Source: Bdellovibrio sp. (GTDB lineage: Bacteria > Bdellovibrionota > Bdellovibrionia > Bdellovibrionales > Bdellovibrionaceae). From it: a stretch of 64,000 bases of DNA. Every line of letters begins with the position of its first letter. Positions within the stretch are counted from its first letter, which is position 1. A program made the position numbers and the translations under genes. The notes under the pieces were generated by a model that was not told the DNA's origin, ran no database searches, and saw only the letters and a program-made list of their open reading frames with translations. This document shows positions 44,594 to 54,904 of this stretch, one piece after another. The DNA is taken from assembly GCA_036676395.1 (NCBI GenBank), contig JAKFCY010000002.1:160001-224000 (forward strand). Direction: 5' to 3'.

Positions 44594-44614
44594 AATTTAG
44601 GTCTTTAAAATGCA

Positions 44615-44647
44615 AAAAGCGAAATGAGCTTACGCCATTTCGCTTTT
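44615..44647. terminator. Bidirectional terminator-like hairpin
   Basis: AAAAGCGAAATG/CATTTCGCTTTT 12-bp stem; the minus-strand tail reads TTTTTGCATTTT. Confidence 0.75.
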
Positions 44648-44687
44648 ACAAGATATTCAGGCTTCATTCCGAAGAAAGGAGCCGAAT

Positions 44688-44810
44688 ATCGGAACTTATA
44701 TATCCACGTATATAACTTTTCGGAATAATAAGCGAAAACTTAAGTATTACCTCTGGCTAGTTTTATGTCTTCTCGAAGTCATAAAGCGTATCTTAGACTT
44801 AATACGATAG
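44688..44810 (+). CDS. 40-aa basic/hydrophobic peptide, putative type I toxin (non-canonical ATC start)
   Basis: AAGGAG 6 nt upstream of ATC; (I/M)GTYISTYITFRNNKRKLKYYLWLVLCLLEVIKRILDLIR*. Confidence 0.5.
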   Translation: MGTYISTYITFRNNKRKLKYYLWLVLCLLEVIKRILDLIR

Positions 44811-44937
44811 AGTCAGTTTGTTAGAGGATTCTTTCTAGATCACCGTCTGCGTACATTGATCATCGGAAGAAGTTTCGGGTAAATTGGAAAAGTCACTGCG
44901 TGACTGCGCAGAGACCTAATTCGGAATGGCGTTAAGC

Positions 44938-46767
44938 TCACTTACTTACTAAGTGAGCGAGCTCTTGTTTTTTAATCTCTAAATTTTCCATGTGATTCAT
45001 CAAAGCTTCTTCCATGTTTTCAGTCTCAGTGTTTAAAGCTGCGGCCTGTTTGGCTAATTCTTGCGCCTGTTGGCCTTGAGCGGTGATCAGAGTCGAAGTT
45101 AATTCAGTTTGTTTTTCAGCTTGGCGAAATAATAACTCTTCGGTTTTAAGAATTTTTCGCTCTAATTCTTTAATTTCAGAATTTAAACGTTTGGTTTCTT
45201 CTTTATAGTTAAACTTTTTCTCTGAAGATTCAGAGTTAGTCACAACTTTTTCCACCACGATTGGCGTATCAACGCGTTCGCTTAAGATGCCCTTTTCTAA
45301 ACTCCATAAGTATTCGTCATATGACCCTAAGTATTTTTCGATCGTGCCGTTTCTGACTTCGACAATTTGTGTAGTCACTTGTTTTAGAAAAGTACGATCA
45401 TGGCTGACTAAGATCACTGTGCCGTTAAACTCAGAAAGCGCTACAGCTAGGGCATTCACGGTATCAAAATCTAAGTGATTCGTTGGCTCATCCAGAAGTA
45501 AGAGTGGATTTTTTTGTAATAACACTTGGCCTAAGGCCACGCGTGTTTTTTCGCCGCCAGAAAGCACTTTGATTTTTTTATAAATGCTATCGCCAGAAAA
45601 CAACAAAGAGCCTGCCATATTTAAAATGTCTTGAGCCATATTGTCTTTATGAGCTTTTCGTTGAAGCGCGTCTAAGACGGTATCGTTATCTAATAAATCA
45701 TCGGCTAAGTGCTGGGCAAAATAAGAATGGCGCACTTGATGGCCCCATTTAAGTTCGCCTGTGATTAACGGAATTTTTTCAGCAATAGATTTTAATAACG
45801 TCGATTTACCGGCGCCGTTAAAACCAACAATACCAATTTTTTGACCGCGCTCGATCGTGACGTTCACATTTTTAAGAATAACTTTATCTGCACTATAACC
45901 AAGATTGGCATTTGTCAGAGATAAAATTTCTTTTCCGGTCGGTGTAGCTACGGGTAAGTTAATAATCGCCCGCGGCGGTAATTTCTTGATTTCGACTTGT
46001 TCTAAGCGATCTAAACTTTTCAAGCGACTTTGCGCTTGTTTGGCTTTGGTGGCTTTAGCTCTGAATTTATCGACGAAATCTTGAATGTGCTTACGTTTGT
46101 TTTCGATTTGCACAGCTTTGGCTTCTAATAAACGCTTTAATTCAGCCTTTTGTTCGAAGTAATCATCAATATGACCCGGAAATTTCACAATATCACCAGC
46201 TTCGACTTCTAAAGTGTATTCAGTCGTGCGACGTAAAAATTCGCGGTCATGCGAGATCAATAAAAACGCCTGTTTATGATTTTGCAAAAAGTTTTCTAAA
46301 GTTAGAATGCTTTCTAAATCTAAAAAGTTGGTCGGCTCATCCAAAAGCATGATGTCTGGCTCTAGCCCGATCAGGTAAAGAAGCTTCATGCGCATACGAT
46401 AGCCGCCTGAAAGCTGTGTCAATTTTCCGGCAAAGTGACTCTCTTGTAAGCCAAGCCCAAGGCCGATTTGCTTTAATTCCCAAATGGGCTTGATGCAATT
46501 GTCTTTAAGGTAGTCTTCAGAGTTCACATCGACTGTCCAATCGGACTCTTGCTCGAGGTAGCCGATGCGTAAACCATTAGCTTTTGTGACTTCGCCGTTA
46601 TCTAAATGCTCTATACCCACGATAATTTTGAATAGAGTGGATTTGCCAGCTCCATTGGGGCCGATCACGCCAACGTGTTCGCCTTGATTAATGGAAAAGC
46701 CGGCGTTATCAAAAAGGATTTTTGAGCCATATTGCTTAGATGCATTGTAGAGTTGAAGCAGATTCAT
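44938..46767 (-). CDS. ABC-F family ATPase (YheS/Uup-like)
   Basis: Two GxNGAGKST Walker A motifs, LSGG, two LLDEPTN, no TM, C-terminal coiled coil. Confidence 0.93.
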   Translation of the reverse strand: MNLLQLYNASKQYGSKILFDNAGFSINQGEHVGVIGPNGAGKSTLFKIIVGIEHLDNGEVTKANGLRIGYLEQESDWTVDVNSEDYLKDNCIKPIWELKQIGLGLGLQESHFAGKLTQLSGGYRMRMKLLYLIGLEPDIMLLDEPTNFLDLESILTLENFLQNHKQAFLLISHDREFLRRTTEYTLEVEAGDIVKFPGHIDDYFEQKAELKRLLEAKAVQIENKRKHIQDFVDKFRAKATKAKQAQSRLKSLDRLEQVEIKKLPPRAIINLPVATPTGKEILSLTNANLGYSADKVILKNVNVTIERGQKIGIVGFNGAGKSTLLKSIAEKIPLITGELKWGHQVRHSYFAQHLADDLLDNDTVLDALQRKAHKDNMAQDILNMAGSLLFSGDSIYKKIKVLSGGEKTRVALGQVLLQKNPLLLLDEPTNHLDFDTVNALAVALSEFNGTVILVSHDRTFLKQVTTQIVEVRNGTIEKYLGSYDEYLWSLEKGILSERVDTPIVVEKVVTNSESSEKKFNYKEETKRLNSEIKELERKILKTEELLFRQAEKQTELTSTLITAQGQQAQELAKQAAALNTETENMEEALMNHMENLEIKKQELAHLVSK

Positions 46768-46817
46768 TTCTGTGCCACATTACTAGAGTTTTCATAATGT
46801 TTAAAGGGGAGATTTTA

Positions 46818-53783: not shown

Positions 53784-53812
53784 ATTTTTAAGTGTTCTGC
53801 TATAGGGGCAAA

Positions 53813-54549
53813 ATGAAACAATTAACTTTATTGATTATTATCATTTTGACCTCTTTTTTTACGAACACTTATGTATCCGCTAAAGAAAATAAAAAAGAAA
53901 AATTAAAATACAGATATGAAGGCAATGATAAAATACTAAAATATAACGGATTTATCTTTCGTGCTGATAAATCTGTTTCTGACTTAGTTATTTTACGGTC
54001 GCACGCAATCATCGATGCAATGCTCGCAAATGATGAATATATGCAAGACAGCTAACTGAAATGGATTTTCAGATTAATTTTACACCATCAGGTGGAAAAA
54101 TAACGGATGTCGATAACTATGCTGAATTCAAAGGTAAAAAAGTAAAGTTTAAGACTTTACCATCGGGCAGCGGGAATTTTGAAGATCAGGTTGCTGGCCT
54201 AGCTGAATTTCATCAACTGATCGTTCCTGAAGATGATCTAGGCGGGATAGGTAAAGGGCGGATCATGGTGCATGAGTTTGCGCATGCTATTCATTTTTAC
54301 ATGCCCCAAGATGAACAACGACAAATTAGTAAAGCTTTTGAAAACGCCCGACGTAAGAGGTTGTATGCACCGAATTTGTATATCAATGAGAATTCATTCG
54401 AGTATTGGGCCGAATCTACGACAGCTTGGTTTAATGTACAATGGAAGTCTCGTTCAGATGGGATTAATACGCGCAAAGCTCTAGAGGACCACGATCCAGA
54501 GATTTCAAAAATATTAAAAAAAATCTATGGTGATTCAAAGTTTCCGTAA
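53813..54549 (+). pseudogene. Frameshifted secreted zinc metalloprotease (HEXXH, anthrax-LF/Pro-Pro endopeptidase-like zincin)
   Basis: ORF1 has a signal peptide and stops at 54055. ORF2 (54061-) carries VHEFAH and EYWAE and has no RBS. Adding one base near 54050 joins the two frames. Confidence 0.7.
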
Positions 54550-54638
54550 GGGCGCCAAAAATGCAAAAAGCTGCAGGTGGATAACCTAACAGCTTTTTAG
54601 TGATACCAGACTTCCGAACTTACGGAAGGAGGTCCGAT

Positions 54639-54749
54639 ATGCGTAAACCCAATTATTTACGTTATCGTCGCCTTTTAAATGTTTCTAAAGAGATTTTAAG
54701 AATAATTATGATGATTCTAGTGATTGTCATAACGATTAAAAGTATTTAG
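54639..54749 (+). CDS. 36-aa basic/hydrophobic peptide, putative type I toxin
   Basis: AGGAGG 6 nt before ATG; MRKPNYLRYRRLLNVSKEILRIIMMILVIVITIKSI*. Confidence 0.7.
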   Translation: MRKPNYLRYRRLLNVSKEILRIIMMILVIVITIKSI

Positions 54750-54875
54750 CAATCTAGATTCTGTACGTTAATTGCTAGATTTTGATTTGTGATCAAGACC
54801 AAGGTCGGACTTAAAATCCCGGGAATTTGGTGAACATGGAATCGTTGTTAGGTCTATCCACACTCTTAAAAATAA

Positions 54876-54904
54876 AAAACCCACATTTTTTAGATGTGGG
54901 TTTT
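54876..54904. terminator. Bidirectional Rho-independent terminator (icd and the sORF transcript)
   Basis: AAAACCCACAT-N7-ATGTGGGTTTT. Confidence 0.85.

Follow-up and report, generated by a model that had tools for sequence, protein, structure and literature searches.

Type I toxin-antitoxin systems have been described in few phyla and are, to our knowledge, almost never annotated. Among those described, the aapA/IsoA units of Helicobacter and Campylobacter and the hok/sok system are the closest to the cassette analyzed here, an intergenic element found twice in a 64,000-nucleotide stretch of a Bdellovibrio sp. genome (contig JAKFCY010000002.1, positions 160,001 to 224,000; hereafter the window). 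The aapA/IsoA units are short and present in several chromosomal copies, with an mRNA closed by pairing of its 5' and 3' ends that encodes a cationic, hydrophobic peptide of ~30-40 amino acids (aa). Its Shine-Dalgarno sequence (SD) is masked by an anti-SD, and an antisense RNA covers the 5' untranslated region (UTR) and the start of the open reading frame (ORF); this organization is given in the T1TAdb paper (PMC8594479), and the metastable anti-SD hairpins in another study (PMC6733600). The hok/sok system, known from plasmid R1 and from chromosomal hok homologs that are also multi-copy, has an inert full-length mRNA folded back between its 5' and 3' ends, and an antisense RNA against the leader. 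DinQ/AgrB and TisB/IstR-1 similarly produce a small inner-membrane-type peptide under a dedicated stress or alternative regulator. According to the T1TAdb paper, their toxins are LexA-controlled and sigma-70-dependent, and their antitoxin small RNAs (sRNAs) do not overlap the mRNA but are located next to it (PMC8594479). That paper counts 24 families and its text, on which this comparison is based, nowhere mentions Bdellovibrio; a 2025 abstract lists type I systems from Proteobacteria, Firmicutes and Tenericutes only (PMC12390103).

The two intergenic regions lie at window positions 44607-44943 (element 1) and 54558-54904 (element 2). Our combined findings suggest, with a probability of about 0.55, that each is a copy of a chromosomal, multi-copy, type I toxin-antitoxin-like module. 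Comparative sequence analysis delineates a family, a coding signature, covarying helices together with the strand on which they are kept, and promoter-like motifs with nucleotide constraints; from these we infer the transcripts and their ends, sigma factor dependence, peptide toxicity and neutralization by an antisense RNA. Once an activator fires, a sigma-54-dependent promoter (TGGC-N7-AAATGCA) would drive a ~280-375-nucleotide (nt) mRNA from the + strand, encoding a peptide of 33-45 aa built like a membrane-acting type I toxin. Three locks would keep this mRNA inert: pairing of its 5' and 3' ends, enclosure of the SD in a hairpin with an anti-SD, and pairing of the start codon. A sigma-28 (FliA)-type promoter within codons ~10-19 would drive an antisense RNA of ~100 nt across the start codon, SD and anti-SD, ending at the first hairpin of the cassette (hairpin 1). 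By pairing with the 5' end of the mRNA, this RNA would keep ribosomes from binding or lead to cleavage of the double strand and, since its transcription would cross the sigma-54 promoter, it might also interfere with the sense promoter.

In layout the cassette appears nearest to aapA/IsoA, and in its end-to-end pairing nearest to hok/sok. It differs from aapA/IsoA in having no detected sequence relationship (no Pfam, NCBIfam or Rfam match), a sigma-54-type toxin promoter, a sigma-28-type antisense promoter, and an SD that is not freed by in silico 3' truncation. Furthermore, the aapA/IsoA antisense lies wholly inside the mRNA, whereas that predicted for the cassette runs past the mRNA 5' end into the toxin promoter. 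Compared with hok/sok, the promoter types differ, there is no Hok domain match, no overlapping mok-like frame was seen, the predicted antisense reaches over the peptide ORF's own SD and start codon, and activation by 3' trimming is unsupported by thermodynamic folds. No homology was found to DinQ/AgrB, TisB/IstR-1 or other stress-driven type I toxins. With type I systems in general the cassette shares a small (<60 aa) hydrophobic/cationic ORF with its own ribosome-binding site and, in silico and comparatively, an mRNA fold that would block translation.

An earlier note on this DNA, made from the sequence alone, knew of no described Bdellovibrionota family of this kind, and our comparisons with Rfam, Pfam and NCBIfam were likewise empty. 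No peptide or RNA similarity to the described type I families (Hok, Ldr, Fst, TisB, Ibs, ShoB, DinQ and others) was detected by Pfam, NCBIfam or Rfam; Rfam gave no match at gathering score in the window, with only far sub-threshold noise at E ≤ 10, and Pfam and NCBIfam gave no relevant family at E ≤ 1 for 24 family peptides. A collection of 5.8 billion proteins held 40 matching proteins, all named only 'hypothetical protein', one of them from a Pseudobdellovibrio metagenome-assembled genome, and the ESM Atlas returned chance-level neighbors only (nearest named cluster DinQ-like, score 0.75). In a full-text literature search, judged by title and abstract, no work on a toxin-antitoxin system of type I in Bdellovibrio was found, and the top-ranked papers on sigma-54/RpoN in Bdellovibrio show nothing on the cassette genes. 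We thus place the cassette, as a candidate new family, within an already described class of systems; its regulatory wiring would be new.

The note had drawn attention to an identical 14-mer heading both regions, which it took for two paralogous elements of a dispersed multi-copy family. The 14-mer (AAAATGCAAAAAGC) is indeed exact at 44607 and 54558, and one further exact copy in the 3.4-Mb genome heads a third element. The two elements are related copies but not a pair, being two of exactly five in the genome (blastn and nhmmer profile; E ≤ 1.5e-56; next match, E 0.76). Copies within the genome are 74-86% alike and the cassette is ~280-375 nt long; a MAFFT alignment of elements 1 and 2 shows little similarity beyond the 14-mer.

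The family reaches far beyond the window, and the note's inference of a predatory host is borne out, the carriers being Bdellovibrio-like. In a six-frame search with a profile of the encoded peptides, 41/52 genomes from the genus were positive, with up to 9 matches per genome and none in two complete genomes (G003, G012), as were 85/151 genomes of the family, covering 24 of 41 genera. In a phylum-wide sample of 301 genomes, 24 were matched, all within the same order (20/35 in the same family, and one genome each in three other families), and there were zero matches outside the order. A DNA pattern from the 5' part of the cassette, scanned over the genomes of named species, hit 104 stretches, 80 of which were examined. 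Fifty-four of the 80 carried Bdellovibrio-type names (Bdellovibrio, Pseudobdellovibrio, Bdellovibrionaceae and similar), and the peptide ORF adjoined the motif in 48 of these, as it did in 4/4 loci with uninformative names ('bacterium', 'Deltaproteobacteria'); among loci from other named taxa it did so in 0/22, which we read as chance matches. In all, 65 distinct copies were collected.

The ORFs of the two elements are as follows.

44688-44810, + strand: element 1 ORF of 40 codons, with ATC replacing ATG and stop codon TAG, encoding a cationic, hydrophobic peptide
54639-54749, + strand: element 2 ORF of 36 codons (MRKPNYLRYRRLLNVSKEILRIIMMILVIVITIKSI), with an ATG start and an SD

Family ORFs are mostly 33-45 codons long (median peptide 40 aa among 64 distinct peptides), with ATG in 62/65 copies and an SD in 64/65. 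They carry a coding signature: across 16 independent pairs of related copies, substitutions at codon positions 1, 2 and 3 number 97, 62 and 129, and synonymous codon differences number 74 in frame versus 50 and 22 in the other frames. The peptide consensus, MPxxxxxYxx[YF]RRFxKxxKxxLxLVLxxLEIxRRILDL, combines a strongly basic N-terminus with a hydrophobic C-terminal helix, the build that the earlier note had described. A 17-aa Kyte-Doolittle window reaches at least 1.6 in 92% of the 64 peptides, and the mean net charge is +5.9 per peptide, +4.8 of it in the part before the hydrophobic window.

Both elements fold better than chance, with z-scores against shuffles of -5.3 for element 1 and -7.1 for element 2 and 0/100 shuffles as good, and in both minimum-free-energy (MFE) folds a helix of 17-18 bp links the 5' hairpin region with the 3' end.

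44624..44659, + strand: element 1 long-distance pairing, 5' strand (RNAduplex -33.0 kcal/mol; MFE fold)
44876..44941, + strand: element 1 long-distance pairing, 3' strand, whose end overlaps the stop codon of the ABC-F gene (44938-44940)
54577..54593, + strand: element 2 long-distance pairing, 5' strand (MFE fold)
54844..54861, + strand: element 2 long-distance pairing, 3' strand (MFE fold)
44652..44690, + strand: element 1 SD-sequestering hairpin, holding GGAG (44678-44681) and the start position (MFE fold)
54609..54634, + strand: element 2 SD-sequestering hairpin, with GGAGG at 54628-54632

In the predicted mRNA the leading ~35 nt are paired with the final ~40 nt, and CUUU then follows the 3' segment. 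The partners of the 3' region are the loop of hairpin 1, its 3' arm and the spacer after it. Three nested 3' segments, complementary to the SD, the anti-SD and hairpin 1, had been claimed for the two elements; the pairing with hairpin 1 holds and extends to the spacer, whereas 3' segments pairing with the SD or the anti-SD were not found in elements 1 and 2. RNAalifold predicted no pairs on a MAFFT alignment of 25 full-length copies because the alignment is too gappy, and alignment-free tests of cognate against non-cognate ends were used instead. Among 47 non-redundant copies the own 3' end was the best partner in 29 cases, with a mean duplex energy of -37.4 kcal/mol for cognate versus -25.4 +/- 5.0 kcal/mol for non-cognate ends. 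The pairings are thus kept although the sequences differ, as had been noted from two copies, and 14% of the long-range pairs (219/1551) are G-U.

A G-U pair becomes an A-C mismatch on the opposite strand, so that comparing the strands tells to which RNA a helix belongs. With the strands optimized independently, long-range pairing is stronger on the + strand in 39/47 copies (p 2e-7; the copies are mutually related, so that this and the other p-values given here overstate their independence, which counts against our reading together with the points gathered below). The ORF hairpin prefers the + strand by 48:1 and the proximal 3' UTR by 32:15. The SD hairpin (24:25) and the start-codon hairpin (25:21) have no preference, and the region of hairpin 1 folds better on the - strand in 35 of 49 copies against 14 (p 7e-4). 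Random genomic segments, used as a control, showed no consistent strand bias. These preferences suggest that a - strand RNA includes hairpin 1 and that both strands are constrained as far as ~+45 of the ORF, with only the + strand constrained beyond; an antisense RNA running from about +25 to hairpin 1 would fit them exactly.

The A/T-flanked first hairpin and the SD in a local hairpin, both described earlier, were found in the two regions. Across the family, an upstream anti-SD pairs with the SD (GGAGGTyCGA-ATG), with a covariation score of 0.320 versus 0.241 in shuffles, reached by 0/500 of them, on an alignment that is not structure-aware. The unpaired probability of the SD is 0.16-0.22 in the family versus 0.44 in 200 control genes of the genome. 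In consensus folds the start codon is paired with codons 8-13, and the alternative MFE partner of the SD is the end of the ORF, at +108..+124 (40-aa class, 29 folded copies).

The explanation that best survives alongside a toxin-antitoxin module is a tightly regulated gene for a non-toxic small membrane protein, in which the antisense RNA is a regulator and not an antitoxin, the mRNA is stabilized by its 5'-3' pairing, and the protein serves the cell's physiology, for instance during envelope stress or at one stage of the predatory cycle. We regard this as possible, if rather unlikely. Every structural feature fits it equally well, and sigma-54 promoters elsewhere drive stress-response small membrane proteins such as pspG of E. 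coli. The family is moreover old, diverged and vertically kept in many genera, with the element 1 locus common to three species, and in the window it sits among housekeeping genes with no sign of plasmid or prophage linkage. However, a copy number of 0-9 within the genus, including absence from complete genomes, is what one expects of modules that are dispensable, selfish or quickly turned over. The combination of three translational locks with an antisense over the ribosome-binding site is a hallmark of toxic peptides, and the build of the peptide (median 40 aa, +6 net charge, one hydrophobic helix) is that of a type I toxin.

Returning to the toxin-antitoxin-like module, its antisense partner had only been assumed in the earlier note; a - strand promoter motif and the wobble asymmetry of hairpin 1 now point to it from the sequence.

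44615..44647, - strand: element 1 hairpin 1, a terminator-like site of 13 pairs, read as the predicted antisense terminator
54565..54598, - strand: element 2 hairpin 1, predicted antisense terminator
44718..44743, - strand: element 1 sigma-28 (FliA)-type promoter, with -35 TTAAG at 44739-44743, a 15-nt spacer and -10 CCGAAA at 44718-44723
54663..54689, - strand: element 2 sigma-28-type promoter, with -35 TTTAG at 54685-54689, a 16-nt spacer and -10 ACGATA at 54663-54668
44607..44709, - strand: element 1 predicted cis-antisense RNA of ~100 nt, both ends predicted
54558..54654, - strand: element 2 predicted cis-antisense RNA of ~97 nt, both ends predicted

Hairpin 1 is A/T-flanked in both elements. 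Scored in the majority column register, 82.8% of its cells are paired versus 69.1 +/- 1.0% in shuffles, 13 of its 15 pairs show compensatory changes, and its covariation score is 0.337 versus 0.129 in shuffles and at most 0.120 in slid controls. Pairs possible on one strand only number 29 on the - strand versus 9 on the + strand (19 versus 5 copies). The note had taken this hairpin for a metastable 5' hairpin of the mRNA. Since the predicted sense start lies inside its 5' arm and its wobble pairs fit the - strand, it is probably better read as the terminator of the antisense RNA. The U-richness of the tails following it is equal on the two strands.

The - strand of codons ~10-19 reads TT(T/A)AG-N16-(T/C)CGA(A/T)A, with the consensus TTTAG-N16-(T/C)CGA(A/T)A. 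TTAAG-N16-CCGATA is the mapped FliA consensus of B. bacteriovorus, driving attack-phase genes, and the mapped sites include the variants CTTTAG, CCGAAA and TCGATA (PMC3627812). The present genome has 10 sites of the exact form TTAAG-N16-CCGATA, each of them preceding an ORF of at least 80 aa by 33-52 nt, versus 0-3 occurrences for other spacings; this promoter type therefore seems to operate in this genome and genus too. Within the cassettes, a loose form of the pattern stands at one fixed place on the - strand in 45/63 copies, and elsewhere, over all copies, five times on the - strand and three times on the + strand. At the Arg codon that supplies the -10 with its first base, 38 of the 43 CGN cases are CGA or CGG, versus 1/29 at the next Arg (p 8e-14), and the -35 is preserved as NCT-AAA (GCT/ACT/TCT-AAA) across Ala, Thr and Ser codons.

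The 5' end of the antisense RNA was placed 8-9 nt after the -10, as in mapped promoters, and its 3' end at hairpin 1. Its predicted fold consists of a 5' tail left free, a single stem-loop and the terminator; that of element 1 is complementary to the mRNA 5' end, the anti-SD, the SD and the first ~7 codons. The prediction of a ~100-nt antisense over the SD and start codon follows from the strand asymmetry, the sigma-28-type promoter and hairpin 1 taken together. The U-tail of this RNA, GCUUUUUGCAUUUU, corresponds to the conserved 14-mer read as its reverse complement, and the predicted transcript thus runs past the start of the mRNA and into the toxin promoter.

That promoter is of the sigma-54 type in both elements.

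44600..44620, + strand: element 1 sigma-54-type promoter, with GG at 44600-44601, GC at 44612-44613 and GG-N10-GC spacing
44607-44620, + strand: the 14-mer within it, with the mRNA start predicted at ~44625
54551..54571, + strand: element 2 sigma-54-type promoter, with GG at 54551-54552 and GC at 54563-54564
54558-54571, + strand: the 14-mer within it, with the mRNA start predicted at ~54576

Conservation of the family begins abruptly at the GG, with the logo (T)GGCnC-N2-AAAATGCA(A/T)AAAGC, and the GG/GC spacing in the cassettes is the exact spacing of the sigma-54 -24/-12 elements. Both dinucleotides are present in 37/64 copies, and GC with at least the second G (xG+GC) in 53/64; the C of the GC, at -12, sits 70-74 nt upstream of the start codon in 58 of the 64. 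Divergent copies carry the textbook form TGGCACG-N4-TTGC (twice in L067, and in L009). A single rpoN and about 12 sigma-54 activators (12 strong Sigma54_activat matches) are encoded by this genome. Sense transcripts are predicted to start within the 5' arm of hairpin 1, at the point from which the mRNA pairs over long range with its 3' end. The 14-mer would accordingly serve twice, as the -12 region of the sense promoter and as the U-tail of the predicted antisense terminator.

The genes around the window copies are ordinary: a convergent ABC-F ATPase gene downstream of element 1, a convergent isocitrate dehydrogenase gene downstream of element 2, and a uracil-DNA glycosylase family gene also nearby. 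The ABC-F stop codon (44938-44940) overlaps the end of element 1, so that ABC-F transcripts must enter element 1 in antisense. Directly after the 3' pairing strand of element 1, at 44936-44973 and inside the 3' end of the ABC-F gene, there is a 9-bp hairpin (GCTCACTTA/TAAGTGAGC) with a T-run 9 nt later, which may be the terminator of element 1. Element 2 is separated from its convergent neighbor by a further feature.

54876..54904, either strand: A/T-flanked GC hairpin between element 2 and isocitrate dehydrogenase, flagged on the - strand and closing the + strand fold, likely a two-way terminator

Across the family, the upstream gene is co-directional with the cassette in ~38/51 copies. Among 56 family loci the downstream gene is convergent in 35 of the 50 scorable copies and both neighbors are aimed at the cassette in 27, and the convergent stop codon is often no more than ~35 nt from the cassette 3' end. 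Read-through from convergent host genes could therefore supply extra antisense RNA, and hairpin 1 of element 1 may also insulate it against read-through from the upstream gene. Cassettes 330-700 nt apart stand in tandem in L008, L034, L067 and G023:C172, with the 3' end of the first copy running into the promoter of the second.

This gene arrangement makes - strand read-through plausible and bears on a second explanation, which we consider improbable: that there is no dedicated antisense RNA, that hairpin 1 is a two-way terminator or insulator, for the upstream gene and on the - strand for convergent genes reading into the cassette, that the sigma-28-like motif is a by-product of the peptide motif and of + strand pairing, and that the cassette is a sigma-54-driven small ORF with regulation in cis only. 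The weakness of the -10 variants and the equal U-richness of the two tails speak for it, as does the lack of a conserved sigma-70-type -10 on the - strand. A sigma-70 antisense promoter was tried as a candidate and rejected, a position-wise -10 scan finding no more than 13/52 copies at any position on either strand; promoter prediction gave no sigma-70 site in element 1 and two chance-level sites in element 2, and a crude score gave noise. Nonetheless, read-through should constrain the whole element on the - strand or on both, and the ORF hairpin is kept on the + strand by 48:1. Element 2 retains hairpin 1 and the motif despite its own strong terminator before the convergent gene, and selection on amino acids explains neither the third-base bias of the Arg codon (38/43 versus 1/29) nor the NCT-AAA.

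A non-autonomous mobile element of the MITE (miniature inverted-repeat transposable element) or REP (repetitive extragenic palindrome) kind, which the earlier note had named as what could overturn its reading, or a structured non-coding RNA with an accidental ORF, is most improbable: the cassette is multi-copy and intergenic, with inversely complementary ends and a preference for gene 3' ends, but it has no conserved terminal repeats, its ends differ between copies and covary within each where a transposase needs conserved ends, its terminal pairing holds G-U and is stronger on one strand and so acts in RNA, and its copies are only 74-86% alike and carry an ORF with a coding signature, SD and ATG (62/65) and no Rfam match. 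The same locus is occupied by element 1 in three species; in 5/5 other genomes checked for an empty site, as would reveal target-site duplications, the upstream neighbor of the ABC-F gene differs, so that the orthologous empty sites are not syntenic.

Several observations weigh against the toxin-antitoxin-like module. Of the 36-40-aa ORFs described earlier, that of element 2 is a 36-aa ORF with SD and ATG, whereas the 40 codons of element 1 lack a canonical start. Its ATC is shared with orthologs in two other species (L003, L020), and the 40-codon frame is open and still diverging, which points to a copy that is attenuated or uses a non-canonical start, not to a dead one. In thermodynamic folds of 55 copies, removal of the 3' end leaves the SD closed, its unpaired probability being 0.22 at full length, 0.19 minus 45 nt and 0.16 without the 3' UTR; hok-type activation by 3' trimming is therefore unsupported. 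Upstream of the sigma-54 GG there is no conserved activator site in 28 aligned copies, and an activator may do without one or act from inside the cassette. The sigma-28 motif overlaps the peptide motif ([YF]-R ... K, xCT-AAA), so that its conservation is partly coding, and the commonest -10 variants (TCGAAA 17, CCGAAA 9) depart from CCGATA. CGA and CGG are also frequent at other Arg positions of the ORF (65/107), and CGG at the first Arg can be explained by + strand pairing with codon 2 as well; coding would appear to explain the conservation partly, not wholly. Finally, the TGCATTT tail that marks the family was present in 0/8 published attack-phase sRNAs of B. bacteriovorus, and 0/6 short - strand promoter strings were found in the published start-site table, which holds starts of annotated genes only. 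One of the published sRNAs, APsRNA3, has an anti-SD-like stretch and a long hairpin, yet could not be related to the cassette family. Of the earlier proposal, the core survives the comparative tests: a dispersed, covarying cassette in several copies, with the architecture of a type I toxin mRNA and new for Bdellovibrio-like bacteria. The role given to hairpin 1 is probably a different one, and activation by 3' trimming finds no support.

The 3' UTR is 80-190 nt long and has a conserved loop motif, CCAACGUGUAC. In 33/65 copies it holds the hairpin GGGA-CUUAAAA-UCC, which matches at every letter the anticodon arm of tRNA-Leu(UAA) from the same genome (G000 C2:1752617, - strand); variants retain the anticodon-loop pattern C-U-N-N-A-A-A. 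Element 2 carries one such form.

54806..54819, + strand: element 2 3' UTR hairpin CGGA-CUUAAAA-UCCC, whose core is the tRNA-Leu(UAA) anticodon arm

This hairpin might work as a recognition loop of the U-turn type, or imitate a tRNA toward some tRNA-binding factor. Genome scans for a trans partner of the 3' UTR loops gave only chance-like matches and the tRNA-Leu anticodon arm. The ORF apical loop UUUUA is complementary to the 3' UTR loop UAAAA, and in a few copies, judged by eye, the loop of the SD hairpin could kiss that of the 3' UTR, though this is not general.

Three further observations concern the surroundings. Upstream of element 2, a 162-aa ORF at 54061-54549 (+ strand) has a sub-threshold match to Pfam ATLF (E 1.4e-4; 22 bits versus a cut-off of 27.4), and its product may be a small metalloprotease-like protein. 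On a 2.2-kb contig (G000 contig C7, 55-600) there is a ~176-nt tandem repeat of at least four units, each with AGGATTTAAAATCC. The sequence CCAAC(G/A)TGTACAGC...TCGCAAGC recurs frame-like inside several long ORFs of G000 C2, at 639679, 670388, 1094703, 1103966, 1287632, 2128957 and 2576354; this is coding sequence repeated in a family of paralogous proteins and has no relation to the loop motif of the cassette.

The cassettes number several hundred across Bdellovibrio-like predators and form a well-delimited family that is invisible to Pfam, NCBIfam and Rfam. They provide a natural covarying sequence set for studying how an mRNA is silenced by end-to-end pairing. Their wiring would be unusual, with sigma-54 for the peptide, sigma-28 for the antisense and the antisense terminator nested in the sense promoter. 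In Bdellovibrio, the free-swimming attack phase has FliA as its sigma factor, and a doubtful extension of the toxin-antitoxin-like module is that FliA-dependent antisense and sigma-54-dependent peptide mRNA together make a life-cycle switch built on a toxin-antitoxin chassis. If so, the peptides could be made only on leaving the attack phase or on a particular signal, and several such paralogs, active on membranes, would then either arrest or restructure the membrane of the predator itself, or target the prey. The overlap of antisense terminator and sigma-54 promoter would add mutual transcriptional exclusion. With such a switch, a type I system would for the first time be known beyond the phyla so far described, and for the first time with both partners under alternative sigma factors, and it would possibly link small membrane peptides to the switch between attack and growth in bacteria that are being developed as living antibiotics.

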